Shown here piece after piece: positions 9,128-42,720 of a stretch of DNA of 64,000 nt; the stretch's first letter is position 1; each line of letters begins with the position of its first letter. Below the pieces are notes generated by a model, which searched no databases, was not told the DNA's origin, and worked only from the letters and a program-made list of their open reading frames with translations. Source of the stretch: Dudresnaya verticillata (lineage: Eukaryota); the NCBI GenBank assembly GCA_977862235.1, contig OZ374558.1:248001-312000 (forward strand), written 5' to 3'. Made by a program: the position numbers and the translations under genes.

Positions 9128-9177
9128 GTAATTACTTTTCCCGGGAGTAGTTTCGTTATTGTTGACGAAGCGAGATC

Positions 9178-11013
9178 GTGTTCACGATGACCAACACTAG
9201 GGGTGCTACGAATGGATCCAATGCCCAAGATTCAAGCACAAACCGTGTCCGTCAGACGATCGTCGAAACGGTGGAAGCGCCGAGGCTGACAGGACTGTCA
9301 ACGGCTGACTTCGTCTTGTTCAAGCACGATCGCGAGATCTATGAACGACGAGTCGCTGAGAAGAATTCGGATCCGAATGTTAAGATCCAGCTTACGAACT
9401 ACAAGGACTCTATTCTACCTGCTGTGCTGGAGATCTTCGCACTAGGTGACTGGGTTCCGGTGGACACCGTTGACGACATCACGGAGAAGCATCTTGAGGA
9501 CTGTGTGGCCAAGCAGGCTGTAGTTAATCCTGATGATTATGATCTTGGAAAGCTCGATGATTCCCTCAATGACTTGAAGCTCGGACGAGCGGATAGTGAA
9601 CACAACCTAGAAGCCCAAGTTTGGAAGCTGATCTTGGAATACACCAAGATCTTACAGAACTGTGGTTACGATAAGTTTGCCGAACAGCACCCGAAGCTTG
9701 CCGTGGAGCACATACTTAAGCGTATCACTCACCCGTTCCTGAAGAACCGCATGATCATGACTGCGCGTCTGAAGAAGGACGAGGACTTTCAGAAGAACTT
9801 CAAAGTTTTCGTACGAGAACTCGCGAAGGAGGCGCGGGGGATCGACCGCATGAACGCCGCCAAGAAATACAAAGCGCCCGCTACCGCTTTCGACAACTTT
9901 GCTACTCGTGTCGCGGATGATCCGCCGCCGACGGCGCCATACCGATCGGGCAGTTCCGGTTCCGGACGTAAGAATAAGAACCGTCGTAATCAAGGTGGTG
10001 CATCTGGCAGTACTGCAGGAGATGGAAACCGCAATCAAGGCAAACCGTTCGGTGGTAACGATGGCAGAGGTAAACGCTTTCGCGAACCTCCCCATTGTCT
10101 CAACCCAAAGTGCGACAAGCGCCATTGGATTGATGACTGTGAAATAACTGCGGACGCAGAGAAGAAAAATCTCAAGGATGAGTGCCGTGCGCGTTCGCAA
10201 GCGCGCAAGCGATCGAAGCAGGACTCAGAGAAGCGAGGAAACATCGGATCTGTAGAACTACCTACCGAAGGAGAACACACATCAATGTTCTCAGCCTCAT
10301 TCTGTTCAGGTGCTGTAGAGGTGTCCGCCTTAACCGATCAAGGTTCGGATGCTAATCTAATTTCACCATCAGTACTGAAAGAGATCTTACTGGCTGACCC
10401 AGATGTTCAAGTTGTGACTCTACCAAAGAAGCTGGAGTTCTCCAATGCTCATTCTTCTGCAGTGAAGATCACGTGCAGCAGGCAAGTATCCGCTGACGTA
10501 ATGCTACGCGTACGCCATGGTACGAACCTCATGTTGCGAGGAATGAAGTGGCTGGTCGCAGACGCTGAAGTACAGCACGTTTATGTCGGACGACATGTTC
10601 TCGCGTCTATAGGGTTGAACAACCGTGTCATGCTCGAGTTCGCGGCTGATAGATTCGGAGGAGTCGTCGACGTCCCAGAAGTTCTTCATAAGGATGGGAG
10701 TGGCGACACTCCTTGCGCCGACGCCGGTGCGTCTATCCATGGAATCCTTCGCGAACGCGGTTTGGACTTCGGAAGCACCTTCCACAGCGAAGGAGGTGCT
10801 GAGGACGATCAACTCGAAGACAGTAACGTCTACGCCGATCTTGGCGAGGACTCGGCGGATGATTTGAAACAGGCGATCGCCGCAATGGTCGAAGACGCTC
10901 GCAACAATGGACTGAGCGATGCCGGAGCCGAACGGCTGATCTCTATCCTGGACAGGTACCCGGTTTTCGGATTCGGCTGGGCAAATCCCAACCAGCCGAC
11001 GTTCCGCCAATGA
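9178..11013 (+). CDS. gag: Gag + aspartic protease
   Basis: Zn knuckle CLNPKCDKRHWIDDC; protease-like ALTDQGSDANLI and VYVGRHVL. Confidence 0.85.
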   Translation: MFTMTNTRGATNGSNAQDSSTNRVRQTIVETVEAPRLTGLSTADFVLFKHDREIYERRVAEKNSDPNVKIQLTNYKDSILPAVLEIFALGDWVPVDTVDDITEKHLEDCVAKQAVVNPDDYDLGKLDDSLNDLKLGRADSEHNLEAQVWKLILEYTKILQNCGYDKFAEQHPKLAVEHILKRITHPFLKNRMIMTARLKKDEDFQKNFKVFVRELAKEARGIDRMNAAKKYKAPATAFDNFATRVADDPPPTAPYRSGSSGSGRKNKNRRNQGGASGSTAGDGNRNQGKPFGGNDGRGKRFREPPHCLNPKCDKRHWIDDCEITADAEKKNLKDECRARSQARKRSKQDSEKRGNIGSVELPTEGEHTSMFSASFCSGAVEVSALTDQGSDANLISPSVLKEILLADPDVQVVTLPKKLEFSNAHSSAVKITCSRQVSADVMLRVRHGTNLMLRGMKWLVADAEVQHVYVGRHVLASIGLNNRVMLEFAADRFGGVVDVPEVLHKDGSGDTPCADAGASIHGILRERGLDFGSTFHSEGGAEDDQLEDSNVYADLGEDSADDLKQAIAAMVEDARNNGLSDAGAERLISILDRYPVFGFGWANPNQPTFRQ

Positions 11014-22562: not shown

Positions 22563-22846
22563 CCGTATAGATGATTGAACGTTTCCCGAGTTGCGGTAAT
22601 CGGAGTATCGACGGTGAGAAGAGCTTCCGTTTGAGCGTTTCGAATGCGGTAACCTCATACGCCGTGGGACTCTCGTAGTCAGGATCTGCGTCCTTTCGTG
22701 TCATGTCCGTCAACGGTCGCGTAATTTTCGCGAAGCCTTTAACGAATCTTCGGTATACGTTACACGCTCCGAGGAACGAAACGACTTGAGTGAGTGTTTT
22801 CGGGAACTTAGCGTATCGGAATGCCTCGGAGCTCTTCTCGGCCATA
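22563..22846 (-). pseudogene. pol: Gypsy RT connection/RNase H start (downstream part of the element at 42508-46850)
   Basis: VVSFLGACNVYRRFVKGFAKITRPLTDM..AFETLKRKL..ILRLP; continues GKLSM|AEK across the DNA transposon. Confidence 0.9.
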
Positions 22847-23100
22847 AACACTACTTTCGAGATATTCAGAATCAACTTTACAAAACAGTACCAAATTGCA
22901 CCCCGGTTTCTTTAGCTCTGTGGAACCGGGAGCGTGCGCTGAGAACAACGGTGGAATCCGTTTGTCTGTAGCGTAACTAGTTCAGAAGTTATGGCGCACT
23001 AAGCACAGTCTGTACACCCCCCAAACGTTTCCGAAAGTTTCACACTTTTCCGAATTTCTGTAAAAACAATTTTAATTAGATTTTCCCTCACCCTGTGCGG
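22847..23100 (+). repeat. Left TIR (resumes at 27544-~27605 after the LINE)
   Basis: Reverse complement of ~42180-42507. Confidence 0.93.
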
Positions 23101-23860
23101 AACCAAAAGTCCTACAACTCTCTCTCCTTCTCCTTCTTTCTCGCCGTTCTCTTCATTCTTTGCCCCTGCTTTTCGTTCCTGTCTCTGCTGCTAGCGTGCG
23201 CTCCTCGCGTGTCGCTCGTTCTTTGCACCGCTTCCCTTCGCCGCTGTGCTTCGCACCGCTGCTGGGGGCCTCGGCGCTTTTCGCTTGTCTTTCCTTCCGC
23301 TCTCGTCTTTTCGTTGTCGCTCGCCGTTGCTTCCACTTCCCTTCTGTATCTGGCTACGCCCTTGCTACATCCTATCATACCGTCACCCAATGCGACGAAG
23401 CGTGCTAACAAACCGTCTCCGGAGTCTGCCTTTATTGGCTTAACACACCACGCCCTTGACTTTCTTTCCGATGCTGCTGGTCTATTGGACGGCGCTGTCG
23501 ATCTGACCGATTCTACCTCCGTCGAAGCCTTTATTCTCAATCTGTTCAAAATTCCCCGCGTGCAAGCTGTTCTACCGACGTTTTCTCGCAATCCTCGTTT
23601 CGCCTCGCTCTTGCGCATTCTCTCCGCATTCTCCCATCCTCCGGGCTGCCAGGGTGGCAATCCTACAGTGTCCCTTCTACCCTCTGCATCTACTCCGCCG
23701 GATCTGAATCCATCCTCGGTCCCTGCATCTTATCGTCATGCGTTCGAACGAAATCGTGTCGTGCCCTCCCCCGCCTCCTAAGTCCACCCGCAATCTCTCC
23801 AAGCTTCCGTTGCTCGGTCGTGCAGGTCGCATTTAACAGGACAGCCCCGGTGCTACTTCT

Positions 23861-24586
23861 TTGGCGAAACGTTTCGCTGGGTCTGTACGTCGTACTACCC
23901 GCGCCCTTTTCGGTGGCAATGAAAAGCGCTTCGTTCGCGTCACATCTCCATCGGCTGATCAGCGGGTGGCCGTTCCGTCTGAGTTTCGTTCCGCGCTACG
24001 TCAGGGCGGTTTTCCAGGCGCCGCCACTATTCTGCCCACTTCGAATGCTTCCTCTTTCTATATTTGCGCTGCCGAGAGAGATCTTCTATGCGCTGAAGCT
24101 GCTTACAAGGCGTGGGCAGCTTTAACGTGTCAGGCTGACAGCTTTACGGCTCCACAGCTCTCCTTCTCAGCAGTGCTCGATCTTCGCACTGCACTTTCCG
24201 ACCCAAATGACATTCGAGCCGTCTATCCCTACTTGCGCGCCGAAATTCTGCGCTTGGAGTGTACAAACTGCACGTGGGCGCCCGCCAGGTACTTCTCGTG
24301 TTCCCTTCGAGCCCTCGATACGGTACTATTCGAGCGACTTCTCGCGTCTGGAACGGCACAACCCAGTGACGCACTTCCTTCGGCTTCCGAGACGCAATCT
24401 GTGCCTAAACGTCGCCGTGGGTACCCGACGCTTAGCGCTCCCGACGCAGAGGGTTTCCAAACCATTCTCCCGAGTCGCCCTCCTGATTCTCCATCTCCAG
24501 CCCCATCTCATCCTCACGCTCCTGATTCCGTCTCCGCTCCTGTTCCACAAGCTACTTATCCCGCTGAAATGGACTTGGAAAACTGA
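23861..24586 (+). CDS. LINE ORF1-like region (likely extends upstream across a frameshift)
   Basis: 241-aa ORF whose TGA overlaps the RT ATG (TGATG); 228-aa ORF upstream in another frame. Confidence 0.5.
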   Translation: MAKRFAGSVRRTTRALFGGNEKRFVRVTSPSADQRVAVPSEFRSALRQGGFPGAATILPTSNASSFYICAAERDLLCAEAAYKAWAALTCQADSFTAPQLSFSAVLDLRTALSDPNDIRAVYPYLRAEILRLECTNCTWAPARYFSCSLRALDTVLFERLLASGTAQPSDALPSASETQSVPKRRRGYPTLSAPDAEGFQTILPSRPPDSPSPAPSHPHAPDSVSAPVPQATYPAEMDLEN

Positions 24587-27474
24587 TGGAGCCATATTCA
24601 ACTTTCGAACCCTGTCCCGGTCCTGATGGTGTCTTTCCCCTTCGAATCCCTACTGTCAAATACCTTCCGAACTGCCTGCGTGATGACTGGGATGCGCTTA
24701 ATCATCATCTCTACTCGTCTTTCTGTCGTGCACGTACTGATAGCGAAAAAGTGGAGCGTCTTGCTCGCATATGTGCGGTTGGAAAACTTGTCCTGCGTCG
24801 CAACGGGCGGGGCGAGCCTCGCTCTCGCAACCGCGCCACCTGCACGCGTCTTCTACGCGAGCGACTGCAGCTCGCCATCCGCGGCAAATGGCTGCAGCTA
24901 TATGATTTCGCTACCTGCGCGTTCGAATCGCTACCCCGTTTCTCCTCCCCTTCATCCTCGGGACTCGATTCTACTCGCCGATGTCGTCAACTGATGGCCG
25001 ATGGCGCAGTATCCAAGGCCGCCGCTGCTCTCTGCAGTGGCACAACCCCTGTTCTCCCGACGCCGGCTACCTACCACCATCTCGAGGCTCTCCACCCTCG
25101 GCCGCTCACTCCTTTCCATTCTGCCACAAACGCTTCTCTACCTCCTTCCTATGATTTTACGGAGGCGGATTTTCGGCGCGCCCTCAAGAAGCTACCATTC
25201 CACAGCGCTCCGAGTCCTGATGGTTTACGCCCTTCCATTCTCCGCCACCTTGCACATGCTCCAGGCGGTTCGGAGCCTGCCCGTTCCTCTCTCACTGCCC
25301 TAACGGACTTCTTTAACCTGTGTGCTCGTGGCGGTCTCCCCCGTAAAATGCGCCCTTGGTTCTCCAGTGCGCTGCTTATCGGCCTTCCCAAGAAGCCTGC
25401 CCCTAAGCTCCGCCCCATAGCCATTGGCTGTGTGCTCCGCCGTTTCGTCTGTCGCCTTCTTAACCAATGCGCTTCTCAAGACTCCAGCATCTTAAATTAC
25501 CTCCGTCCTCACCAGCTTGCTGTTGGTGTCCCCAACGGATGTGAGGCCTTGGTTCACGCTACCCGCGCGGTGGTGGACAACAAAGCATCTGAAGACTTCG
25601 TTCTTTTGCGTATCGATGCAGCAAATGCCTTCAATATAATCGACCGTGCTCACTTGCTTCGTCAGGTTATTCAGTATGCTCCGCGCCTCGCCAAGTTTGT
25701 GCACTATCTTTTCTCCAGCGACCCCCTTTTACTGTTCGGGCCCCACACTATCTGGAGTCGCACCGGAACCCAACAAGGGGATCCGCTCAGTATGCTACTC
25801 TTTGCCCTTGCCTTTCAACCTCTCTTTGACCAGATTATTGCTGCCTTCCCCGACCTTCCCTTGGTTGCCTGCTACGCTGATGACCTCAACATTGTTGCTC
25901 CACTTTCCGTTGCTTCTGATATCCTTTCATTCTTACAAGATCTTGGAGCCCCTATTGGTTTCCGGATGCAAATGAATAAGACCGAGGCGTGGTGGATCCG
26001 ACCGCTCCCCACACGCCGCTCGGTTGTCACCGCGCTTCCATGTCGTCTGAACCGTTCTCCATGCATTGATATTCTTGGTTCCCCTGTCGTTACCGGCCAC
26101 GGGTGCCTCCAGTTTACCCAGCAGCGCCAAAGCGCTGTGCAGCATATATTTTCTCGTCTCTCCGCACTTGGAGATCCACAGTTGGTGTGTCACCTCCTTC
26201 GTTACTGCGCTGGTGCTAGTAAGCTCGTGTATCTCCTTCGAACAACCCCACCGCAATTTACCCGCGTTGCTGCGTGTCACCACGACAACAACATGCGAGG
26301 GGTTTTCGAGGAAACGCATGGGGCTCTGACCACCAGTGCTTGGGAATTGGCCGGTCTCCCGCTACGCCAAGGTGGTTTGGGTCTCACGCATACTTCATGG
26401 TTGCCGGATATTGCCTTTCTCAGTTCCGTTCTTGCCTGCTTGCCGACGATCACTGCTCTACTCGGCGTTTCCGGTTTTAGCGCTCGTACTATCCTCTCTG
26501 CTCCTTTACGACGCGTGCAGAGCATTTTATTCCTCTCGCCATCTGCCGCACCCTATTCCATGGACTCGCTACTGGCTTGGGGTTTATCCACTGCCTTCCA
26601 GCCCACGTACGCTCTACAACACGACTTAACCAACCGGCTCCTGCTCCATAAGCTCTCGACCCTGACGCCTGCCTCTCACGATGCTGCCGACATCCGCACT
26701 CGTCTACGACTTCAATCTACTAGTACCTCAAACTCTGCTCGCCCATTCAGCACTATCCCTTTTCACGGGAGTGATCTTCGCGTGGAGCCTGAGATCTGGA
26801 AGACCATGGTCCGCCTTCGTCTTGGTCTCCCGTTGTTCAGTGGCGACCTCCCATGTTCTCGCTGCGCAGCTGGCACCCGCTCCTCTATCCCTCTGCTTGA
26901 ACGCTATGGGCACCATGCCACAATCTGTGGCGCTCGCGAAGGGTCTATCCGTCGCCACAACGGCCTTCGGGACAAACTAGCTGCTCATATTAGTACAGTT
27001 GCGCTTCATCATGGTGTCCAACTTCGCCTGGAAGAGCCCTTTATTGATCCATCTGACCCCACCCGCGACCCTCTTCGCCTGGACATCTACGTGGACGATC
27101 GCAGCTTTGCCCCAAAAGCACAAGCGTTCGATGTCTCTGTCGTGAGTCCCCATTAATTGCCGGTCAGAACCGGTCGCGTTGCTGGTCAGGCCATCCTTGC
27201 CCGCGAGAGAGCGAAACGTAACCATTGCCGTGCTGTTTTTGATCAATATGACACCGAGCTGCACCCGATGGTCATTGATATATATGGACGCACCGGTGCT
27301 GGCTTCGATATCGGCGCTCAAGTCTTCGCCAACTTTCTTGCCGAAAAGAAAGGCACTTGCCCGCTTGCTGAGAAGCATGCTCTCTTGAATCGTCTTGTAT
27401 CCTTTGTTTCGCAGTTTGTCGCCGTCAGCGTCAATCGTCGCCGCTTGACTCCTGCAGATTTGCCTCATATGTAG
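24586..27474 (+). pseudogene. RT + CCHC + restriction-like endonuclease, one in-frame TAA at 27154
   Basis: LRPIAIG, QLAVG, DAANAFN, GTQQGDPLS, YADD, LPLRQGGLG, CSRC..HATIC, RRHN, RLD..DVSV..E..K. Confidence 0.93.
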
Positions 27475-28192
27475 TGCTTAAGAGTATCCAGTAGGGATGC
27501 TCTAGCTTTATGCTTTTGTAAAGTGAAGTTTACCCCTGTGCGGCCCCAGGGACGCCAGCGCACTCACCTCACCACCGCTGTCGCCCCCGCCCGCCGCCCC
27601 TGCACCGCACCGTCCCCGCACCACGCCGCGCGCACCATGCCGCCCCTGCACCACGCCACGCACACCACGCCTCGAGAACTGTTGCCGCCACCCCCGCTCG
27701 CCGCCCCTGCACAATGCCGCGCGCACCATTGTCGTCGCCCCTGCTCCCCTCCCCTGCCCAAAGTGCCAGCCCTTCGCGCATTTGCGCACCCGGCCTGCCC
27801 GCGACGCCCCTGTACATGACGTCAGGTACCTGAAGGGCGTCCCTGCGCGGCGACCGTGCTTGCCCAACAGGCACTTGACGTCCTTGCTAGGCGTCCCTGC
27901 TCACTGCGCATGGTTGCTCTACCTGCATGTGTCAATCCTGGGCACAAGCACTGCAGTCAGGACATGCACTGACAGACTGTAACAGTACCCTCGCTTCATC
28001 CCTCCTCAGTCCGCCTCGCGCCACTTCCCCTTATCACTGCCGTCCCACGTGGGTGTACACCCACGACCCCGTAATTCGCTCCCACTCTGCTCTTGTGCTC
28101 ACCTTCTGTCTCTAACCAGTGGTATCGCAATGCACACCGTCCGTCGCCATCGCACGCTGCTGCGAAAACGCCACCTTTATCGTATCTGTACT

Positions 28193-28867
28193 TCACCTTC
28201 TGCAGTACTCGTACGGGATAGTCCCAATGTCCTCGGTGATTTCTCTCATATTTGCTGCATGCCTGCAGCAATTGTATCGCCTGCGGATTATGTTTGCCAG
28301 CCTTGGTGGTTCTTTCTGTTCTCCATTCTTAACCTCATCCATGCAACCGCAGAGCGGATCGATCCACGTGTCGCAGAGTTTCACTTTCGTACTGCGCCTC
28401 TTGAACTCCTGCCATTCCCGCCCGTTGTACGCGAACTTGTATTCCCCCCTGAAGAAACGCTCTGAATATGATTGTGGTCCTGACTGTGCTGATTCTGCCC
28501 CGTATACACGTTCGTAGAACTCTTTGAAGTTACTTCTGGCGTAGAGGCGCACACCGAGGTCTGCAAGGCCGAGTACCTCCTTCTTCTCCTCGATGGCACT
28601 GCTCACTTCTCGAACAATGAGATACTCTCCGATTCGCTGCACAGCCTCCTCAAGTGTCTCCCCAGGCTGGCAGTACTTGTGAAGGTCGAGAATATGCATT
28701 CTGCCCTTCCCTGACGTTGTAGATTCCTCTTTGTTACATTCTGTTTCCTCACCTGCGCCTGTCCCCGAATCAGGACTCCCAGCTGAGTGTTCGGGGTCAA
28801 TCTCTTCTTCATCACTGCTGATTTGTATCGCCTCGTCCACTTCGATGGCCTGTGTGATGTCGCCCAT
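28193..28867 (-). CDS. Cargo ORF, acidic N-terminus and Cys-rich C-terminus
   Basis: 224-aa ORF with C..CGC..CC cluster. Confidence 0.45.
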   Translation of the reverse strand: MGDITQAIEVDEAIQISSDEEEIDPEHSAGSPDSGTGAGEETECNKEESTTSGKGRMHILDLHKYCQPGETLEEAVQRIGEYLIVREVSSAIEEKKEVLGLADLGVRLYARSNFKEFYERVYGAESAQSGPQSYSERFFRGEYKFAYNGREWQEFKRRSTKVKLCDTWIDPLCGCMDEVKNGEQKEPPRLANIIRRRYNCCRHAANMREITEDIGTIPYEYCRR

Positions 28868-28959
28868 CTCTAACGTGCGCCAAGGTCAATTTCCTTGTGC
28901 TGGCCAGAACGCGACCAATTCGTGTGCTAGGGGCCTTCGACATGTGCCATCTTGTAAGA

Positions 28960-29530
28960 TCTAGAGAGTTCGTAATGCCATACAAGTCTCCGCAGCAGAC
29001 TGTAATTTCTTCACGTATGTGGAAGCACAGTACTAAAGTGCAATAACCGGGATGTGACACGGAAAGGGCGTGTCCACACTTTTCACGACGTTTTTATAGC
29101 CATAAAACATCGCGGGAACGGAGGACACATGACATGTGTCTGCACATTGTCCAGAAACATCCTTCAGATTCCCATGACGTGGTTCACAGTTCTGAAACTG
29201 ATGGACATACCGGCCTCTGTACAGTGCTATTATGGCAACGGGATCAACAAATTTCTCAGTAGGAGCGTTTCTGCTCCTGGTCTGAAACATATGGGGGAAG
29301 GATTGAGTACGAGGGCATTACCAATAATTCTGGTGTGACTTCATACGCATATGCGTTGGACACATTCCTACCGTGAGATATGCCGCGAGCTATACTTGCC
29401 TTGTGATTCCCGCAGGAATGCGCGCTTTTTCAACTCTGTACGGTCACTATGGTGCCTCTAGCTCTTCCTGTCCGGGCAAAAGTGAGTTGTAGTGATTGCA
29501 CATACTCCTGCGCCCGCAGGCCTCGAAGAC
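28960..29530 (-). pseudogene. Possible degenerate SET-domain remnant
   Basis: GAGVYA near 29500, QNCEP near 29190, IREEITVCCGDLYG near 29000: SET-like motif order across broken frames. Confidence 0.3.
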
Positions 29531-29717
29531 TATTTTCCGGTACAGTAAAGTGGCTTCGTTTTCACTGCTAGAATGGTTTTGAAGCAGTAACAGTGTAAAA
29601 GGAGTTTGATCCAACCGATATCTCCTACCCAGTTACTACACTTTCCCTAGGTCCGAAGTCAAGTTGTTCATCACGATCATCTCTTTGCACTTGCGACAGA
29701 CCACCTGCATGTGCGCC

Positions 29718-32706
29718 ATGGGCAGAAAATCCAACAGAAGGAAGAAGACGCCCGTGACAAATGACCGTAATGAAGTCAGTCTGCACCAGCAAACGATTCA
29801 GTTCGCTGATCTGCTTGACGGTTCCATGCTGAAGTGTGTCGATCCCCGGGCTTGTGTACCCCTCACCAAGGTCAGGCCGATATCCAGGTCCGGAGTTGAA
29901 CGGCTCAAGCGCATTTTTATCGGACTAGGAGGGGGTACAAACCAGGGGGTGCGACATGCTCCCGAGTCGATAGGATATGTCGCAGGGAGCGATATGCCAG
30001 TGATTATCGAGCTCACGGGAGCCCTTCGCAAGCATGCAGGAGACTATTTTCGAAGTTCTCGGAATAGGGAGGGAGCGTACCGTACGGAGAAGGAGATGAA
30101 AGAAATCATCAGTTCGAGAGGAGTGTGGTATGGCGTTGTAGATGGCATGCACCGGCCGGTTGCAATTATTGAGCTCATGGACATACACTACGAGATATGG
30201 AAGACATTCTCGAGGCCGGTTATGCATGTCAGGGGCGGGGCGTCTCTGCAGGTTCTGAAACAGTTTGCAAGGCACCAGAACCGCAATCATCAGTCTGCTT
30301 GTTATGTAGAAACCACGTTCTTTGACACACTGAAAGGCCTGCACGAAGAAGCCGACCGTCTGCAGGCTGAAGCCAATGGAAAAGAGCCGACAGCGAAAGC
30401 GGTTGCCGCGGCGTTTTATGGTGCTTCTCATCTTCACGAGAACACAATCAGGAAAACAGGCCAGGTTGTTCTTCGATTGCATAGATCGGTCCTAGATACT
30501 ATCGGGGAGATTGCAACACAGGAGGATGCAGACTTGGCGGCCTCGACTTCCCTTGGAAGTGCAGGGGCTGGAAGTTCCAGGCAGCTCGTAATGTCCTCGG
30601 TAGACTGCCGAGTCTATCGGGATTTTATCCATATATCGTCACTGAAGTCTGCTACAGTGCTTATGAATGCCGGCCGGTCGCCAGACGGGGTAGAGGCTCA
30701 AATATGTACCTTGAACAGGCTGCGGAAAAGGGCCAGAATGCATAATTTCAGACCTGCACCGTACAAGGTCACAGTCGAGGAATTCGAGAGAGCAAGAGAC
30801 GCGTTGATAGAAGCTAGGAAGTTCGAGAGCCTGAGGGAATCCCCGAATTGGCCTTCAGCTATGTCCGTTATGAGGACCAATCTGTTGCACACGCGCAAAC
30901 TGGACCTGGACGTTATGTCGAATCGTGGAAACAATCACATACTGAAGACGATTCTTACCATGTACCGAGAAAGTTGCCCAGGGGAGGCCCCACAGAAAAT
31001 AGAGAAATACAACAGCAGATAAGAAGTTGCGCAGGCACGAGTACCGTCTAGCACAGATCCAAAACATCCTGAAGAAGAGAAGAGCCCTGGAAGTCACATG
31101 AAACATGTACCGTCTGGAGTGCTCTTGAACAAAACTGCTTCACAATGTACCCCACAGACAGATACGGAGAAGGAGAACGACGACAACCGCAGTGATCCCG
31201 ACCACCTGGGCTCCACTGCGAGAAGCACAACTCCGGATGAGTCCCTTCCTGTGATCAACGGGGATGAAGGAGACGCTGTCACACCTATCCCTTTGCCCTC
31301 AACGGCCACTACGATAAGATCGGAAAGATTGGATACTGTTAAGAAGCTTAAAAGGGATAATAGAGACGATGTCGCAACACCGGACGAGATACTGAAATCG
31401 GAAGGCCTTGGGTGTGACCAAATATGCTGGCAGGACTACAACCAAAAGTACAGGAAAATTGAGAGCAAACTGTTGGATTTCATTCTGTCGGAAACCCCGT
31501 ATGGCACCCCTGCCTCACAGTCTCGAGCTGAGAAAAGGTATGCCAACTACCTCAGTACTTCAGAAATGAACGAGTTGGCTGAGTTTTGCAGGCAGACAAT
31601 CGCCCCGGGTGGTTGGGTGTTCCTGTTTGTGTCATTTCAGACCTTTGAGCACATGAGGCAGGCACTTTCAAAGAATGGTTTCGACTACCCAACGTATGCA
31701 TTCGTGATTCTGAAGGGTACCGGACTGTTCAGGAATCCAGGGGCAACGAAAGGCCACAAAATGGCGCAGACATAGCCGTTTTTGGGAAACCACCGGGTGT
31801 ACACCCATCCGGTTCAAAGGTAGACTTGAAGAGCCCCTATCACTTATTGAAATGCCAGGAGAAATGGAAGTTCGCATGCATGTCGACTGTCCCAGTCTCC
31901 AAGAAGAAACTGTTGAGACCTCAGACAAGATCCCCGGTGCTGACCGAAGAAAAGAATGTTGACTTGCTCGCGGAAGTTCTGATGACGTTCTGTGCAGAGC
32001 AAGGGCATGTCTGGATACGTACGCTGGCACGATGACGACCTGCATAGCGTGTCTTGCCACTGGTAGGAGATGCGCATGCATCGAGAAAAATGCTGAAACG
32101 TTCAGACATGCACACGGAAGGCTATCGCGACTGGCGCAAGACGCACAACGTGTAACCAAGGTAGCCCCTTTGAAGGAAATATGTACTGCTCCCGAACAGG
32201 CGTCTGAAAAAGCATGTGAAACGGGCTCAGAACAAGCTGCCTGGCAGGCGGGTAGCTCAGAGCGTAAACGAGTGTGTTCCGAAGGGGCGCCTGAACAGAT
32301 GGAACCGTTGGCCAAGCGGCAAAACGTCGAGACAGGAGCAGTACCTGCTAAGGTCAGGTGACGGAATGATAAACAGGGAGAAGGGGAAGATGTGACCCAA
32401 CACCGAGAAGTCAGTGGGGGAGATGAAGTCACTCTCTTCATTGACAAGAAGGCTGTAGGAACTTCCAAGGTTCAGTTGGGGGTGGACGGGGCGCGATTTC
32501 TGGATAGCATCCATGGTACTGCGTTATCCTCTTTTCAAAGAGAAGGTCAGCACCTCGTCGCAGTCTATGCATTCAAAGCGGCGACGAAAAGCTCCCATTT
32601 GCGATACCCGTACTCATACCGGGAGATAGACAGTGAGATACTGGCAACTCTGAGTGAGATCCAAAGCGTGTTTGCTTGGGACGTCAATCAGATGGCATTG
32701 ACATGA
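29718..32706 (+). pseudogene. ParB-like + beta-class N6A/N4C DNA methyltransferase + Tnp1-like accessory domain fusion
   Basis: ParB-like VRPISRSGVERLK..YGVVDGMHR; in-frame TAA at 31020; motif IV-like LDFILSETPYG; APGGWVFLF; EKNVDLLAEVL..GHV/LDTYAGTMTTCIACLATGRRCACIEK (motif I, 1-nt frameshift ~32010); in-frame TGA at 32359. Confidence 0.85.
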
Positions 32707-32892
32707 ACTCACGAGACGAGCTTTTCATGGTCATCGTCGAATTGGGCGAGTTTCCTGAGATTAGCATGCGACCGTTCGCAAAGACGCCTTACAATAACCC
32801 GACACCAGCCTGCTGGCGCTCTACAGACAGAGATTCCTGCCGCACATACGTCTCCGCCCCTGCAGTGTTTGGCATAAGAACGGAATCGACCA

Positions 32893-33280
32893 GACTGCAA
32901 CGTTTCGTTTGCGGGGCTGACAAATTCGGTGCGCGTCGCAATCAAGAAGCTGGGAGGCAATACATCGCCTGATGAGAAGGTCATTTTGGGAATGCGCAAC
33001 GAAGAGCGGGTAATAGTTGACGTAGCCGCGAGCTTCCAGGAAATGGCAGTGCGAAATCTGGAGCAGCGCGCGGGGGGCGCCCTGCAGATTTGCGCTGCAC
33101 ACAAGACAGGGGCGCGCACGCTGGTTGTGTCGGACAGCCGTCGGTGCGGCGTCCAACGCAGTGGTGAGAAGGCGGGTGATTGCGGCGTGCGAGCGGCACG
33201 GGTGCACATGCGCCATCCCGTCCAACGAGTTGTGCACCGCGGTGCCAAAACAGGGTGATGGATGTGCGGGCGATAAGGCC
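32893..33280 (+). pseudogene. Captured C-terminal fragment of a TsaD/Qri7(OSGEPL1)-family t6A enzyme
   Basis: DCNVSFAGLTNSVRVAI, DVAASFQ, TLVV, (frameshift) VGAASN..R..IPSNELCT..VM match FSFAGLKT/AASFQ/GGVAAN/LCTDNGVM. Confidence 0.8.
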
Positions 33281-33842
33281 GCTCGCCGGGCTCCTCGCGC
33301 AGCAGGAACGAAAAAGCTCCGATAGCTATGTGCTTGTCTCGTGCGGGAGAAGCTATTCCGTATTATTGATAATACGATGACAGTTCTGATTGCTTGTAAA
33401 AGGCGAAAAGGTTTCTGAAAGCTTCCCTTTCTGCGCTGCAAAGAGCAGCTGTTTCGTTGTCCCAGGGCCCACAAGGAAAATATCTGTTCAAAAGCTCTAC
33501 TTTCGTATGAAATACGAAGCCTTTTTAGATATTCCGGTTCTGGCCGTATCAATACCCAATCAGAAGTATTTGACAGATCATTTCCATGAAAAGCTATGTT
33601 GTATTATCCATACTACACCTACAGTTTCGCGGAGCTCGCCCTTTGCAAAACCTAAAGTTTCGTGTCGCGACCCGCTACTCCGCTCGTGTTTCTCCGACGG
33701 GCCTCACCGACCGCTCCCAATCCCTCCGCCCAGCCCGCGTACCCCAAAGAGCCCACGTCTCCCAACCGATCGCACCCCGCGCCTCCGCCTGTCCCGCCCA
33801 CATCACACATCCGACACTCCGGAGACCCGCGCGCAAGCCCAT

Positions 33843-36000
33843 TCACCCGTAATGTATCAATCCCAAGCTCGCAGGACTTCGCCTCCTCCGCCGAGTCACA
33901 CGACGAGTAGCGTCTGCATAGCTGTCGCCTTCCTCATGGCTTGAATTGTCAACAACGAGACCAACCCTGCTCTCAGCCGCAAGAATCCAGTCCGTGAAAT
34001 GCACCTCCATCTGACATAATCGGTCGTCACTATCGTTACCAGGAGCAACAGAAATCCAATCTGCATAGTCAACTGACGCGCAGCTTGGGTCAATAACTTC
34101 ACGCAGCAGTACCGTTTTCGATGGCACTAAGACGTGAAAGCTGTCAACAGATTGCTCGAGAGTCCTTTGGCGTCTGACCGTTTGAGATTGTATCCCATCT
34201 CCTCTGGGAGCCGCGCGCCGCCGCAACGTCGAATTCATGATGCTACTTTCACGTCTACCTAACTGGAGCTCGCCCAGTAGAGGATCTGTCCCGTCAAGCA
34301 GTACTTCATTAGACTGGGAAGATACTTTTCTCTTCTCGGGTGACGGCAACATCATTTCAGTACACTCCTGATCAGACGCGCTCTTCATATCTTCGTTAGC
34401 GTCCCGACCGAGCCTGTCGATAAACCCGCCTATCTCGCGATTGTTTGGCGAGCCACCCAAACCGTTCAGAAAGAACTCAACAGCATCTTCAATGGTTTGA
34501 ACTCCATTCTCGAGCAGAATGGCAGTAACTGGGAACTCCGCTTTTGCAGGTCTGGATATCCCAGAAACCCCATCGTCTTCAGAGTCCTGATTATGCCGTA
34601 CCCTTCGCCGCCGCCTGGTTGTGCAGCTCGAAGCAGCCCGTCTGGACTTAGAGTTGCTTAGCGAATCGACAGGCGAGCTACGCTTTCTCGACGAGGCGGT
34701 TTGAACTCTTCTTCGTTTCGGACGAATTCCGTTGGTCTCTTCCTGTACTTGCTTTGCACTTGACTGGATGCGCCTTCTCCTTCTCGACTGCGTCGCGATA
34801 GGACTTCCTGGAGTAACTGGCGAAGTGCGGTTCTGCATAGCTGTTGCCTTCTCCCCTGCGGGCAATCGAGATGGGATGGGCGAGATGGGATCCACTTTCG
34901 CAGCGACAGGCGTCGAATGAGAAGAGCTCGTACCCGCATCCTTTGCTTTCCGCGAAACATGCATCCTAACCGAGTCTTCTCCCTTCGCCTTCTGTCTTAC
35001 CGGAGTGATCGAAAGATCCATATTCCTATGGGCACCAGCACTGCCCTCCTTCTGCTCTAGAAGCGCACGCGAAACTGGTAGCCCTCCACTGTAGCTCATG
35101 CATGACTTGGTATCCAACAGCGGTCCGCATAATCGATTTTGCTGCTGGAACATAACATAATGGCTTGGATAAGCTGAGGCACGCGCTATAAGGTCAATGA
35201 TGAACGCAGAGCCGAGGAAAAGCACATCACCTTCAAGCATGGCAGCGAGCTCGCGTGTGTGCGTAGGGTCAAGTCCAGGAGCAATGATGGAAAACGTGGG
35301 GCGTTGCTCCACATTACGCACAAGCACAGCGCCAGAAGCACCAAGCACATCCGCGATAATGCCATTCGTCGGTGCAGTCCCCAGCCAAGGCGCGGCCCCG
35401 GCCTCTCAGGCTTTCGATCGAGAACGTCTTCCATCCATCTCAATGGCTGTATCTCCAGAGACTGCTCGTAGCATGTCGCACCGGGACACCATCACCTTGC
35501 GCGCCTTCGATGCAAATGCCGACCAACGTGCTAAGCTCGTCGCGTCTGAATTGTCGAAGTCGAACAATGTCATAGGTATGTACGCTGATCCTGCAGCAGA
35601 AACGGACGATTGGGGTGATGATTTCGTCCTCGGGGAGTCCAGTTCAAGACCGGGAGATCAGTCGAGTGGCAATTGGACCGTTGACGAGGGGCCTGCAAGC
35701 TTCCCATCATGGTTTATTGAGAAGGACCCCACGAAGAACGAGTTCGAGTTCAAACTCGAGACACCGCAGACTGTCGCATCGCTTCCTGTTCGCAATGTGT
35801 ACCAACCGTCCACAGCTGAGATTCTCCCAGGGGGCGATGAAACGTTGCGCATGCGTAGCATCTGCACCGTCTGCTTCTTCTGCACCGCGCTGCCGAATCA
35901 GACGCACTATAAATCAGGCTGTCCGTCTTGGCGGTCAAGGTGGATGCCCAGAATGAAAGGAAGGAAGAAAATCAAGATCCCGGGAAACGAAGGCCCCTCA
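33843..36000 (-). pseudogene. Large unidentified cargo gene (501-aa open part, same frame upstream with stops)
   Basis: ORF 33843-35348, in frame with 35658-35885. Confidence 0.5.
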
Positions 36001-36278
36001 CGAACGACATGGTCAGGATCTATTGTTTCAAGCATAAGCGGTTCTACCGTGCAATACTCTTCTCGAAATTGCCTACATGACGAATCAGTTTTTGCTGCGA
36101 AAACCTACAGGAGAACTGCGCCTACCTAAACCGTGAGAATAGCGTCCCAAGAGAGCTCCTGTGCGGCATTCGCTCCCAAGCAGACGCAGCCGTCATCGCA
36201 TCGCTCCTCGGCGCACTTGCCGTCTGCCGCGACTCACGCCCGCCGCCGCATCAGCTCTCCGACCCAGCCCCCCAAATC

Positions 36279-36782
36279 GTGCCTACCGAACATCTAATGC
36301 AGGGTGCATTCGTCAATACAACCCCCATCAAGCCCCAGCTCATGCCGACATACGACCCTGTCGCATATCTCTCATTGCAGCTAAAGGAAGACGTTCATGC
36401 CGAGATGGAGCCAAATCCCACGCTTGAGAGAGACCTTGGCAGACAAAGGCGACGTGCAGAGCAAATAGGGGGCGATACAGGATACACGCCAAACGATGGC
36501 GCAATTCCAGCTTTGTCCGTTACGGCGACTCAGACGATTGCGACCGAGGGTACAGATAGGGTTCAGACAGCTGGAGCAGGGTCGGACGACCTCGGAGACA
36601 CGACGTCTACGAACGAGCGGGTGGGGCAAGGAGAGGCGGAGGCGAGTTCTTTCCTCGGGTCTGTGGTTGCGTTTGATGAGCACGAGGTGGTGGCATCGCT
36701 TAGCAGAAGAGTTGACCAGCCACCTCTAACTGTTGAGGAGGTTGTTCGAATCAATCTTGGTGGAAGGGCCGGGCGGGCGTGA
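36279..36782 (+). CDS. Unidentified acidic ORF
   Basis: 167-aa ORF, no motif recognised. Confidence 0.3.
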   Translation: MPTEHLMQGAFVNTTPIKPQLMPTYDPVAYLSLQLKEDVHAEMEPNPTLERDLGRQRRRAEQIGGDTGYTPNDGAIPALSVTATQTIATEGTDRVQTAGAGSDDLGDTTSTNERVGQGEAEASSFLGSVVAFDEHEVVASLSRRVDQPPLTVEEVVRINLGGRAGRA

Positions 36783-36866
36783 GAGCAATGTTGATGGAAA
36801 CGAGGATAAAGCGAAGGGGAAGTAAATCAGGGCTCTTCTGAAGCATGCTGCACCAAGGGGTTCAAG

Positions 36867-37259
36867 TCAAGCGATCCCCGGTATGCGGGTCGGAGTGCGG
36901 CGACGGTAATACTCATACGGCTTGCCGAAGAGACGAACGAGGTGATACTCCTCGACGGGGATGCGCTGGTGGAAGAACCTCCACGCGACAGAGGCGAAGG
37001 CGGCGGCGCAGACGGGGTTTCCGAGCAGCAGCTGCGTGCCAACCGCCCACACAAGCCATTCAAGATAGCCAGGGTGGCGGCAGAAGCGGTATACGCCGCG
37101 CGTGATGAGGCGATGGCCCGAGCGGTAGTGCGACTGAATGCGATGCGTGAAGTCGCGGCGCGCTGTGAGCCACGCAGACAGGCGGAGGGTCTGGCCGAAG
37201 AGCACTAGCACAGCGCCCGACGGGAGCAGCACGGCTTGCACGGACGCCTTGGGAGCCAA
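36867..37259 (-). pseudogene. ICMT: Captured C-terminal half of isoprenylcysteine carboxyl methyltransferase
   Basis: GQTLRL..FTHRI..HRLITRGVYRFCRHPGY..GTQLLLGNP..FF..RIPVEE..L..FG..YEYY: Ste14/ICMT signature; N-terminal half absent. Confidence 0.9.
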
Positions 37260-37378
37260 TATCGGAATGACCTACCGTCTGTCTGAAGCCCAGCTGAATA
37301 CTTTCGGACTAACGCTACAACTCAATGGTGCGGTCTCTATTGGGTAATTACTCAATGCAGGTATGCAATCATTGCGCA

Positions 37379-39616
37379 CTAGTTTTGGTGGAGACTCTCG
37401 CGAATCTTGTTATGTACATTGACGGGGATACGCGAAGTGCCCGTTAAGCCACTAAATTCCACAAGCACCGAGCCAGTTGGAATCTTCCCGATCCGTGGCG
37501 CTTGGTCATCTAAGATGGAAGGTTGATATCGCAGCCTATAGGCGTCATGCCGTTCTTGCTCAATTGCTTCGTACCAACATATCTGCAGCTGCACAGATTG
37601 TACCTTCCGGCCTCGTGTGCTCCGCAGCACGTCTTGAATCTTCGCAATGTAGAATGGGCATTCTGGAGTGCTGCCCTCATAGCGAACGGCAACGAAACTA
37701 TTGCGCGAGAATGGGACTTGTATGTCCTCCATTAAGTCTCTCTCGTTTTCGCCGGGAAGGAACTCTACCTCGTTCTCTTCCAGCCCTTCCCTTGATTATT
37801 TCCCATTGGTTTCCAAGACATCTTCTAGATTCCAGTGAAAGGGTTCCATTCTGTACCGATAGATGTCGTCCCGCAACTTCCGAAGCTCTTCAATCTTTTT
37901 TATGTCCTTTATCCGCGCTTCTTTAGAACGAATGCGGTCCCCGACTTCTTTCAAATCCGGGGGAGCACGGGCCCGAGTTGGAGGGGTTTTGAACAACTCA
38001 GGGGGAAACAAAATGAAACCCTTCTGCGCACTGTATGTGCGTAGGGGTTTCCATTCACCGTCGCACTGTATGCGAGCCTGGCACCCCGTCTTGAAACGAG
38101 CATTAACTCCTTCCGGCTCTCCTGCCACCCTAAAGAACCGAAAGAACCTGTAATGTGAAAAGGTTTCAACCTTCCCTACACACTTAGAATCCTGACAAAG
38201 ACCTGAGAAGTTTGGAATGTGCAGTATTCTTGCAACATGCGGCTCCGGCTGGTAGGATTTGCTCAGCTCCTCTATCATTTCATCCATAGTGATGTCATCT
38301 CTTGTATCCAACCTCCTTAAGGTACAACTGAAAGTCTGATCAATATCAGAATGAGTGTGTCCTATCGGCAGAAATGAGGCTTGTGCCTCTTGAAAAACGC
38401 CCCACGCTAGTAGACTTTCCAGGTAGGAGAACATGAACCTGTTCTTGTTCTCCCTGGTACAGTTGTCCATCTGCAGCAGAAGCGTTGGTTGCAGATTCCC
38501 ACTTGCCTTCCTGAGGCTGAGCGATTGGTGTATTGCCTCTATTACATGATTGGCACCGGATTCGTACTCCGCTGTCATGACGAAAAGGCACAACCTATTC
38601 TTCGGTCCGTGTTCCAGAACCCCTATAAGTTTCACCTTGATTGCGTGACCTACTGTAGCTTTCGTATTCACAGCAAAGTGCGGCAGTCCGAACGCAGACT
38701 GGTCTGCGCCGTCTACCACAATCTAACAATACTCTTCAGGAAACATTACAGCTTTTTCCGAAGTCTTCTTGTAATGCACCCGCTCCTTCCAGACCATGGA
38801 CAGATGCTGGTGCCTGCGCATCCTAAACGGCCTCCCCGCCCGCTTGCCGGTTCCCGCCTTGGCAAGTCCATCGCGAATCTCCTCACATTCTGTGCACTTC
38901 GTAAAGCGACATACTTTTCGGACCTTAATTTGGGAACAGTATGCCTTCCACGTAGCGTAAAAGTAGCTCGCGCTTGCAGGTGTCTCACCACTATACAAAA
39001 GGCACTGGTCTGTTGTGAATTGCTCGTACACAGTCTTCCTGTCAAAGTATGGCAGATGCAATTCGGCTCTGTCCGGCATATGGTCTGCAGTAGCTTCAGC
39101 AATCCTCTCGAGGTACGAAACGATTCTGTCCCGTTGTTCAGAATTTGCGTCTCGCGGAGTCGCAGCGGAGAGGGACAACAAGCCGCCAAACGTCTTGACA
39201 GACGTTTGAAAATCCCGTGAAAACCCGAATGCTTTCTCTAAGAAATTGTAGCACACCAGAGCACCATTAAACCGGTAAAACCTGTCAGGCTGGAGCAGGC
39301 GGAATAGATAGTCCCTTCTTTCGTTCTTTTCCATCATCAGAACACGACGAGCTTCGGCCTTGAGGTAAACCTGCTCACAGGCCTGGAAACATTTCTTTGT
39401 AGAACAGCACTTCTTGCGCTCCCAATCCTCCGTGTCTATCCTCTCTAGTGCAGCCGTACGCCTTATCATAAAGGCAGTCTCGCCCTTCTTGGGCCTCTTA
39501 CTAACACGTGAACGATAACGATAAACTCGCTTCTTAACGGCACCAATGCCCCTCGTACCGTTTCCTCTACGCTCCTCAGAACCAACACGATCAGCCTCCG
39601 CTCTCTGCGTCCTCAC
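37379..39616 (-). pseudogene. Sola-like DDD transposase (single frame, stops at 38723 and 37796)
   Basis: LHLPY, FTKCTEC, VDGADQ..LPHF, QMDNCTRENKN, FLPIGHTHSDIDQTFS; C-terminal PFYIAKI..ICWY module. Confidence 0.88.
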
Positions 39617-40749
39617 CTCGGTTTAGGTCAGAGAGCATTTCTGTTCCATCTGCCACCTCGTCGGCAGGTGCTGCCACTTCATCAGCAGGTTCTGTCTGTG
39701 CGCCACCCCGAGTGAAAAGGTCGATAGTGGATTCCGAACCCTCACCTTCTTCGCGACGGTCTTTCCCCTCGCTTGCTGCCACCACCGCCCCCTCCACGTC
39801 ATCTTCCTCAGCTTCCTGTTCTGCTCCTGCTATCTGGTCTGCATCCTGGTCTGGCCCTGCTTCGTGGTCTGGCCCTGCTTCGTGGGCTGGCCCTAGTTCT
39901 CCTACGGTCCCTGGTTCCGCTTCGGCCATACCGTTGTCGTCTTCAGTGATCCCCTTCTTCTCGTTTTGAATAATGCGGTTTTGCTGGCTTTTGAGGGCGT
40001 GGTCGTAACGGCGGCTTTTTCACCGAGGTGTACTGCAGGGGAGATTCCATATCTATATCATCTTCAAGCACAATGTCACACCTTTCCCCGGGTGACATGA
40101 ATGGGTCCGGATCCTGCACGACTGTCTCCCGACCTCCGGCATCTGCTGCTACAGGCGTGCGAGGAGGGGTGTTAGGAGGTCTTGGGCTGCGAATGGTGCC
40201 CTTACGTTGGCCCGGTGTATGCACAGTACCGGAATCAGGGCATTCCTCCCGGTCCCTTTCAAGTAGCATTGCCTCTCCAGGGTTCATCTCTGGCCCAGAC
40301 TCCATCGCCTCCTTCAGATACACAGCCATCATATCCTCCAACTGGTACAAATCCCAACAGTGCTCACCTTTATCCATTTTTTGTAGCATCTTGGGAACCG
40401 CCCTGTCAGATAAGTACTGAAATGGGTTGGGGAGGCGCTCTGCTCCGGGTAGGTAGTGCAATCGGTGGCTCGCTACCCATACCTCCCCGGGGCGTTGCTG
40501 CTTACTGAGAAAATGGCCGCCAAGGACTGTGCAGAAACGACCGCTTGGGTCCTCCGTCCCGGGCGGTGGCAGCAAGAGAGTGGCACAAGCCACATGCTGT
40601 CCTCCGAGAGTTAGCGAGACGCGCGCACCCGGCTTGACATGGGGTTGAGTAATACTTACCTCCGCGGATGCGGGGCGACCTGAGGCTTCTTCCATAGCGT
40701 CAAAACGAGGCAGTAGGGGCTGGTCCGGCGATGCCTGGGAGGGGGGCAA
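39591..40749 (-). pseudogene. Upstream ORFs of the transposase locus, including a Tnp1/Transposase_23-like small domain
   Basis: GARVSLTLGGQHVA..LGGHFLSKQQRPGEVWV..LPNPFQY..HCWDLYQL parallels 32392-32706. Confidence 0.55.
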
Positions 40750-42179
40750 TCAGGAGAGCTCGGAGGAGGTCGCCGCGAGGGTAAAGGTGCAGTGCAGTCA
40801 CCCATCGTTGGGAGGCATGTCTTAAATAGGCGAGGTTTGCGATTATCGGCAAGACTCAGGGTTCCAATTACTGGGTCAGGAACGAACTACCGCACAGTAC
40901 AGATACTTGGTATCGCATTCTGCACAGATTCTGTGGTGCGTAGCGAACCGCCTTCCAGAACGACTGGTATCGCAAAAAATCATTCTTACAAACGCGAAGT
41001 GATGCGCCAATGGCAGGCAGCGCAGAGGATAGGAGGAGTACCCCCGGCCTTAATACTCGTCAGGGTATAACCTGGTCTAAAGGCCCGGCGTGCCTGTCCA
41101 GGCTTCACAACAACTCTGCGTCGGCGTGCGTGCATCGCTGCACAATTTGGTGGCAGGTGCGCGTGCCCATCCAATTTGATCCCGAAGGCCAAATCGTGTG
41201 ACCATGTTGTTCTGCTCGGTTCTGTTAAGTGCAGATGCGGCGAAAAAGGGTATTGTGAATCCAAGTACGGTCACGGTTGAGATTGTTAAAAAGCGTGTCA
41301 TGGATATGACTAGAGAGTAAGGAAACGTTACCATCGCGATTCTTCTACAGAATCGCAGCGCAAAGATTGCCGCCGAAACGGTGATGTGAGAGACCCTGCC
41401 TCTGTTCATCAGTCGCTTGAAGAGCTTCTGGAAGGAGCTCCTTTCCCAGCGGGGCGCGAGGTGTAAATGGGGCATGTATTGTGTCCTTGTGAAGAATATA
41501 CAGATGTTACAGAAGAGAAATACTCGTTCCCAGCTCCTGCATACACGCTTGTAACAACCGCAGATGGCATAGTCATTGGATACGTTAAGGCGGAACAGTC
41601 ATTACTAATTCGCAAGTTCACCTGTCGCAAATGGGAAAAACTGGATGTACCTATTGTTTCAAGTAATAGTCACTTCGTTGTTTGCGAAGCACAAAACTGG
41701 CTCTCACGCAGCAGCAAAGCACGAAACAGATACACGTTCGCGCAGTATGCGTGCCACGCGCCCATCGAAGCACGCATACCCCGTTCGCGGACGTGCACCT
41801 CGAAGCACACATACGCTACTCACTAGCAAATACACATTACCACTTGGGAATATGAAAGACTCCCATGCCCCTCGTTGTTGCCTAGTTAGCAACCGCCTGA
41901 ATGGCCGTACCGCGAGACGTCATTCAGCTCTTTGCATTCATAACTAAACTGCATAATGGCGCTTCTGAAGAATATAGCATAAAGTTGTATCCAAGGCGGC
42001 CGTGCTAGCATCGATGCTGGATCCAGCGTCTCACAAGCCACGGGAAGAGTGTGCGATGCAGCGAGTAGGAGGGCCGGGTAGGAGCGGCTGGCAGGGGCGA
42101 GATCAGTGGTGTGGCGAGTGCGCTGGCGGCCCTGGGGGCAAGCTGGAGCGACAAGCAGACGCACGGAAATCAGGTCGGC

Positions 42180-42507
42180 GAGCAGGAGCGGCGGTTAGGA
42201 GCGGCTGGCAGGGGCGAAAGTAGTGGTGCGGCGAGTGCGATGGCGGCCCTGGGCGAGAGCAGGGCGAGGGAAAATCTAGTTAAATTTTTTTTGCAGAAAT
42301 TGGGAAAAGTGTGAAACGTTCGGAAACGTTTGGGGGGTGTACAGACTGTGTTTAGTGCGCCGTAACTTCTGAACTAGTTACGCTACAGACAAACGGATTC
42401 CACCGTTGTTCTCAGCGCACGCTCCTAGCTCCATAGAGCTAAAGGAACCGGGGTACAATTTGGTACTGTTTTGCGAAGTTGATTCTGAATATCTCGAAAG
42501 TAGTGTT
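42180..42507 (-). repeat. Right TIR
   Basis: Ends ...ATCTCGAAAGTAGTGTT followed by CATA. Confidence 0.93.
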
Positions 42508-42720
42508 CATACTCAGCTTCCCCGGGGAAATTGCGTGTCCGAGATAGTCGACTCATTTTCGGAAAAGGAAACACTTCTTCATCTTGGGTACAATTTGGTA
42601 CTGTTTTGCGAAGTTGATTCTGAATATCTCGAAAGTAGTGTTCATACTCAGCTTCCCCGGGGAAATTGCGTGTCCGAGATAGTCGACTCATTTTCGGAAA
42701 AGGAAACACTTCTTCATCTT
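42451..42720. repeat. 135-bp tandem duplication spanning the transposon right junction
   Basis: 42451-42585 repeated at 42586-42720, GGG microhomology. Confidence 0.95.

Follow-up and report, generated by a model that had tools for sequence, protein, structure and literature searches.

The stretch of DNA analysed here (the window) comprises 64,000 nucleotides of Dudresnaya verticillata contig OZ374558.1, positions 248,001 to 312,000. On its forward strand lies a broken gene that joins a ParB-like half to a beta-class amino-methyltransferase (MTase), and this gene is carried by a large DNA transposon with a transposase gene on the opposite strand. The coordinates of all features are collected in Table 1.

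Table 1. Features of the transposon and its MTase gene; positions are those of the window, and P0003 and P0170 are intact relatives of the MTase and the transposase, respectively.
Feature	Position	Strand	Remarks
Left target-site duplication (TSD), CATA	22843..22846	.	same 4 bases at 42508-42511, after the right end
Left terminal inverted repeat (TIR), outer part, starts AACAC	22847..23100	+	resumes at 27544-27610, past the LINE
Nested non-LTR retrotransposon (LINE)	23101..27543	+	RVT_1 E 8.7e-12; not part of the cargo
CGCCCC(C/T)GC, five copies, left subterminal zone	27582..27745	+	candidate protein-binding sites
Decayed ParB-MTase fusion gene, ~1,000 aa	29718-32706	+	ATG 29718, final TGA 32704-32706
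Predicted ParB/sulfiredoxin (Srx)-fold domain	29718..30311	+	structure model and fold matches; DGMHR 30141-30155, conserved RxQN 30270-30281
Predicted HTH (model residues ~178-248) and all-helical domain	30312..31019	+	weak TetR/wHTH-type fold matches
Nonsense TAA at linker start	31020-31022	+	no stop here in intact relatives; site lies within one tblastn HSP
Variable linker, predicted disordered	31023..31400	+	51-153 aa in relatives; pLDDT<50 in the P0003 model
Beta-class amino-MTase	31401..32135	+	motif IV ETPY within 31473-31505, motif I 32011-32040
Beta-rich tail domain, ~100 aa	32404..32697	+	past TGA 32359-32361; profile E 3.3e-18
Isoprenylcysteine methyltransferase (ICMT) fragment, C-terminal half	36867..37271	-	PF04140 E 5.5e-27
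DUF7869 transposase core and C-terminal domain	37379..39622	-	PF25273 E 3.8e-44; 47% to P0170, 727 aa
N-terminal domain of the transposase; homologue of the MTase tail domain	40336..40641	-	E 1.2e-10
Right TIR, ends GTGTT	42197..42507	-	followed by TSD CATA

The first-pass annotation, made from the sequence alone, had described a ParB-like motif and an MTase in one frame, separated by a single TAA. This description was borne out and every motif was found at its given position: VVDGMHR lies at 30135-30155, the first ORF is ended by the TAA, and LDFILSETPYG follows at 31473-31505 in the frame of the ParB part, while LDTYAGTMTT (32011-32040) and GRRCACIEK (32062-32088) lie in a different frame from it. 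Other breaks are indels at ~31718-31755 and ~32010 and the TGA at 32359-32361. The annotated start of the gene, 29718, stood, but the end at 32361 had to be moved, since intact relatives have a tail that is homologous to the next 114 codons (32362-32706). When the gene was read through with X at the breaks, it scored 902 bits against a profile of 54 relatives from which the window row was excluded, whereas 200 shuffles scored at most 1.5 bits against the same profile, indicating that the similarity is not due to chance. The window copy retains 148 of 173 clade-invariant residues; in a leave-one-out comparison it kept 82-86% of invariant residues, compared with 90-97% for intact members. The decay noted in the first pass was thereby confirmed (stops, indels, and ETPY where the eight closest relatives read DPPY), and the window copy is a dead copy of a transposon accessory gene.

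Intact relatives were collected in two ways. Using the N-terminal half as query, we obtained eight proteins of greater length, 821-1010 aa, at 34-48% identity. Each is a single ORF with PF01555, and seven have DPPY. An intact relative as query retrieved 857 cluster representatives at E<=0.001, 130 of them at E<=1e-30, and the best 150 of the 857 entered further analysis. Among 163 collected family proteins, 58 cover both halves, and the trees were built from 54 full-length relatives and the window copy over 652 columns, with partial matches left out. A separate 'N-terminal-only gene' was considered and dropped, as two such clusters include full-length members. The nearest ESM Atlas cluster (score 0.91, a lead only) is eukaryotic, with Streptophyta as its commonest phylum.

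The window's own N-terminal 415 residues were modelled with AlphaFold2 from an alignment of 111 sequences, giving a pLDDT of 92.5 and a pTM of 0.91. When this model was compared with 48,161 chains in VIA-align, the top eight matches were all of ParB/Srx type (Z 9.1-5.6; next row 4.7), with PadC as the best (Z 9.1, rmsd 2.8, 97 residues) and a Pnob8-like ParB (Z 8.3, 213 residues), sulfiredoxin (7.4) and KorB (7.4) among the others. SerK, SbnI and Atu1540 also appeared among the fold matches, and we take them to share the ParB/Srx fold. Ranks 9-22 were mostly of TetR/wHTH type and fell on residues 178-250 with weak scores (Z 4.2-4.7). The Foldseek top 10 in the PDB were all ParB or Noc proteins (E 0.016-0.53, none at E<=0.001), and the named BFVD rows were dominated by viral ParB-labelled proteins. 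Sequence profiles gave another result: Pfam, NCBIfam and PHROGs contained no ParB profile match for the window gene, none of 51 relatives had ParB_N at E<=0.1 (four of them had a weak match, to DndB alone), and a PDB profile search of the family returned no match for the ParB part. The ParB identity given in the first pass is therefore carried by structure and not by sequence profiles, and the fold scores, middling but one-sided in their agreement, support a ParB/Srx fold followed by an HTH. At the ParB site the family reads DGxHR, unlike the GERR that we assume to be canonical for CTP-clamp ParB proteins.

In the MTase half, two pieces of the window gene match PF01555, one at positions 2-71 (E 0.017) and the other at 185-219 (E 1.5e-4), with separate scores of 15.5 and 22.2 bits that each fall below the curated cut-off of 26.7; the eight intact relatives score 35-58 bits. 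Motif IV precedes motif I in the window copy, which is the beta order, and the catalytic (D/S/N)PP(Y/F) is absent there. The MTase domain of intact P0003 (whole-model pLDDT = 54) was matched to CcrM with Z 21.2, rmsd 3.6 and 224 residues, with a Foldseek E of 1.7e-10. The next best structural matches were M1.HpyAVI, M.BceJIV and M.MboIIA, all DNA N6-adenine enzymes, and the family profile matches M1.HpyAVI at 1e-17. These four bacterial enzymes share fold and motif order with the family (Z 19.6-21.2) and have the DPPY found in the relatives, but they are only 15-20% identical to it, and the family motif I reads GTLTT where the bacterial enzymes have GSGTT, so that the second glycine is missing. 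Unlike them, the family is fused to ParB-HTH and carried by a transposon. Motif order, PF01555 in the relatives and the CcrM-like fold agree with the beta-class assignment of the first-pass annotation, and both an N6_N4_Mtase match, in the PF01555 pieces, and relatives with a catalytic motif IV, DPPY, were found.

The host element spans 22847-42507, which is ~15.2 kb net of the nested LINE, and has TIRs of 311 bp that are identical at 281/312 positions once the LINE is removed. It is inserted in a Gypsy pol frame, which runs on without a break across the empty site. The LINE, presumably CRE-like, is 4.4 kb long, lies in the left TIR, has an 862-codon RT frame and is flanked by a 10-bp TSD, CCCTGTGCGG, at 23091-23100 and 27534-27543. 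We also considered a CACTA/EnSpm element, a class that ends in CACTA and makes a TSD of 2-3 bp. Here CACTA occurs 2 bases inside the end, and this reading was rejected because the ends are symmetric (AACAC/GTGTT) and the TSD has 4 bp. In addition to the five copies of CGCCCC(C/T)GC on the left, two inverted copies lie near 42091-42216, giving 7 in 467 subterminal bp versus 2 in the other 63.5 kb, for a motif that was picked post hoc. One of these 2 is found at 32855, just past the end of the MTase gene. The transposase gene converges on the MTase gene. It carries the acidic motifs DGADQ (38713), DNCTREN (38467) and GHTHSDID (38362), which are kept in 115-118 of 120 transposase relatives among the matches listed, has internal stops at 38725 and 37798, and has its N-terminal part out of frame with the core. 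It is as broken as the MTase gene; both are dead. The TIRs, the 4-bp TSD and the transposase opposite the MTase gene bear out the earlier view that the fusion gene is cargo of a eukaryotic DNA transposon. We take the DUF7869 transposase to be a Sola transposase, and the element is likely of Sola1 type; a literature search on DUF7869 found no paper. A 4-bp TSD is described for Sola2 (PMC3627910).

We then asked about the pairing of the two genes in other assemblies by comparing source-contig sizes. Of 34 distinct sizes, from 35 MTase relatives with a size on record, 8 recur among the 120 listed transposase matches, whereas a shifted null gave a mean of 0.43 and a maximum of 4 in 20,000. Seven of the eight size-matched contigs could fit both genes, and one is too small and demonstrably false. 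The P0178 transposase cluster contains counterparts of equal size and source for 5 of the 6 contigs of the P0003 MTase cluster. Judged from these coincidences of contig size, the MTase and transposase genes appear to share contigs in other assemblies. Pairwise identities of the two proteins co-vary over seven pairs and the window (Mantel r 0.81, 39/40,320 permutations), which may reflect host kinship. Scans for family loci in metagenome, viral and prokaryote-genome contigs yielded only generic MTases at 21-39%, nothing at all, or four distant transposases with no MTase-family match nearby. Distant DUF7869-type transposases were seen in four prokaryotic MAG records (L037-L040), one of them on a 589-kb contig; these are either contamination or real.

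The tail of the MTase and the head of the transposase are homologous. The N-terminal domain of the window transposase is 31% identical to the N-terminus of intact P0170, and a profile of six MTase tails matches the N-terminus of 11 of the 120 listed transposases (E 3e-13 to 3e-24). Reciprocally, a profile of ten transposase heads matches the C-terminal end of 37 MTase-family proteins out of 169, and the tail domain is present in 18 of 51 full-length MTases. It had no Pfam, Atlas or PDB match; we had presumed a similarity to Tnp1/En/Spm domains, and the library searches gave no such match. Neither this shared domain nor the clades lacking catalytic motifs described below were mentioned in the literature covered by our search, which was not aimed at these features and took in openly available papers. 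These results bear on the view that the gene is a neutral passenger with no role for the transposon, comparable to the ICMT fragment. In favour of this view are the decay of the window copy and the presence of a gene fragment in the element. Against it stand the fact that MTase and transposase appear to be linked and to diverge together in lineages that are ~50% identical, the domain common to both proteins, the same pairing described in Ectocarpus, and a transposase that is equally broken in the window copy. We therefore regard a neutral passenger as very improbable and largely refuted.

Motif IV was compared across 88 MTase domains, some of them redundant, and read DPPY in 31, DPPF in 4 and SPPY in none. 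In both FastTree (0.999) and SH-aLRT (99.9) support, the window copy was grouped with eight members, all of which have DPPY and seven of which also have DGMHR. ETPY in the window copy is thus derived, because the other eight clade members all read DPPY. Across the tree, DPPY/F is kept in 20 of the 54 intact relatives, in several deep branches at ~30-60% identity, which suggests selection for catalysis. The remaining 34 have no DPPY/F, and 25 of these also have no DGx(H/Y)R; the two losses are associated (Fisher p 2e-4, with kinship ignored and a few rows gapped at the motif), and the motif-less relatives form whole clades.

Taken together, we favour, with moderate confidence, the interpretation that the window gene is a dead copy of an accessory gene whose intact proteins bind their own element and write N6-methyladenine (6mA) on it. 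From the architecture we would expect the HTH to recognise repeated motifs close to the element ends and the ParB module to load and then spread over the element. The MTase tethered to them would methylate adenines in the vicinity, and transcription or transposition of the element would thereby stay possible. The interpretation is supported by the fused ORF, the ParB/Srx and HTH folds, the MTase fold, DPPY in the clade, the position within the element, the apparent linkage to the transposase and the domain shared with it. Against it count the 34 motif-less relatives, the altered motif I, the middling ParB match and DGxHR in place of GERR.

The same observations give weight to a protein that is mainly a DNA or chromatin binder, an anti-silencing factor or transposition scaffold resembling the VANDAL accessory proteins, in which the MTase is often or always a pseudo-enzyme. 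Whole clades that have lost both motifs nevertheless keep the ORF, motif I is non-canonical, and DAM enzymes of another class, carried by retrotransposons, are reported to have produced no 6mA in E. coli (10.64898/2026.05.21.726589). However, DPPY/F persists in several deep branches, including the clade of the window copy. We consider a mainly binding role less likely than self-marking, but the strongest of the alternatives.

Another question is what an active enzyme would modify. DPPY is described for bacterial N6-adenine enzymes and SPPY for most N4-cytosine enzymes (PMC8885841), so that DPPY in the window copy's clade points to N6-adenine at the level of sequence motifs, and 4mC appears less likely than 6mA for the family because SPPY is found in none of the 88 domains. 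Activity on a different substrate or over a different range (4mC, RNA, DNA-RNA hybrids or genome-wide host DNA) would be in keeping with PF01555 spanning both N4-cytosine and N6-adenine enzymes, with the matches of PvuII and N4CMT to the P0003 MTase at Z 17, and with the statement that eukaryotic beta-class enzymes are often recruited to RNA (PMC4738411). Yet the best structural matches are DNA N6-adenine enzymes, the fused ParB-HTH points to DNA, and an RNA-binding Pfam domain was found in 0 of 97 scanned relatives, and we judge such a substrate or reach to be improbable. The bdelloid N4CMT is a eukaryotic PF01555 enzyme as well and matches structurally at Z 17.1, but it is described as a host gene with SPPY that makes 4mC (PMC8885841), whereas the family is carried by transposons and has DPPY.

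The favoured self-marking interpretation can be extended to both proteins. The shared domain might dock MTase and transposase together or to a common chromatin or DNA ligand, ParB might load at CGCCCCYGC and, gated by nucleotide, spread like a clamp, so that the element might lay its own 6mA track. We put this forward tentatively and consider it unlikely in its full form. If true, a eukaryotic element would have turned a bacterial partition-type clamp to epigenetic self-licensing limited to cis, and whole sub-lineages would later have kept the protein as a non-catalytic binder.

The closest published counterpart is Sola1-1_Ec32 of Ectocarpus, which is described as a 21.5-kb element with a 282-bp TIR and a 4-bp TSD whose last base is A; opposite its transposase lies a gene for a ParB-like and N4C/N6A MTase protein of 1,104 aa (PMC12477816). 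For it a model equivalent to ours, self-modification, has been proposed, and similar proteins are cited from green and red algae (PMC12477816). As far as this description allows a comparison, both are giant TIR elements with a 4-bp TSD ending in A, ends that begin with AAC, imperfect TIRs of ~300 bp (282 there, 311 here) and a ~1,000-1,100-aa ParB-like and MTase gene opposite the transposase. They differ in length (15.2 kb here, 21.5 kb there) and in their ends (AACAC/GTGTT here, AACCG/CGGTT there), and the window copy is dead. The description of Sola1-1_Ec32 considered here makes no mention of motif IV, of the shared tail domain or of pseudo-enzyme clades (PMC12477816).

Related cargo is described in a Bostrychia preprint on Plavaka PAG2 and PAG3 of red algae, where PAG2 is a methylase with SET and PAG3 a ParB with a 2OG oxygenase (bioRxiv 10.1101/2025.02.11.637652). 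These also place PF01555 and ParB-like proteins on giant algal DNA transposons, with self-binding and self-modification proposed as here; they are two separate genes on EnSpm, Mutator or Zisupton elements, whereas here both parts form one protein. No SET or 2OG Pfam match was found in 97 relatives (51 + 46), which for 2OG is a weak test, as the PAG3 domain itself was found solely by HHpred. Both algal papers propose that a transposon may evade silencing by marking its own DNA (PMC12477816; 10.1101/2025.02.11.637652). The view in the first-pass annotation that such proteins are rare in eukaryotes was less well supported, given the design published for Sola1-1_Ec32, the related red algal cargo and the 857 family representatives. 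The dead window copy itself adds one more locus to a known design; the family expands one published example into a large set with natural intact DPPY members, and also offers natural controls in the members without the motif, along with candidate binding repeats and the transposase-shared domain.

Eukaryotic amino-MTase clades are described as deriving from phage ParB-terminase loci, and phage ParB_N and N6_N4_Mtase fusions share with the family the order of ParB followed by a beta-class MTase (PMC4738411). Such phage fusions are the nearest named ESM Atlas clusters (scores 0.86-0.88, a lead only). However, they have ~400-490 aa versus ~1,000 here, and the 24-27% similarity is confined to the MTase part; the ParB part had no sequence match to them. 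When 22 members of the family were placed in a tree with 36 MTases from prokaryotes or viruses, the two groups were cleanly split (support 0.99), with no particular sister to the family and no phage donor among these sequences, and a ParB-like pattern lay upstream of the MTase in 1 of the 36.

Within 27545-42507, GATC occurs 36 times versus 55 expected (z -3.5), the most depleted of 136 four-mers, and TATA (14 versus 28 expected) is also among the most depleted. Neither lies beyond the spread found in flanking DNA, where words other than these fall as low as z -4.6, and we therefore did not read the GATC depletion as a target signal. The ICMT fragment, which matches a solved ICMT at E 7e-28 and starts directly after a TAG, was probably captured from a host, possibly as an exon. 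Open frames at 28193-28885 (-), 33843-35405 (-), 35173-36782 (+) and 41467-41826 (+) had no Pfam or NCBIfam match where scanned, and the first of these, divergent from the MTase gene, may be another accessory gene. There was no Rfam match. The C-terminal domain of the transposase at 37379-37795 (-) looks BAH-like, and one relative gave a weak BAH match (E 0.043). An exact 135-bp tandem duplication at 42451-42720, across the right end and the Gypsy flank, is either real or an assembly artefact. The window as a whole is dense in eukaryotic transposons and has a GC content of ~52%; the frames at 54286-59814 (+), with GGAR/GGPR-type repeats ahead of them, presumably represent a Helitron Rep-helicase, and 9166-14000 (+) is what we take to be a Gypsy-like gag-pol with an apparent C-terminal chromodomain.
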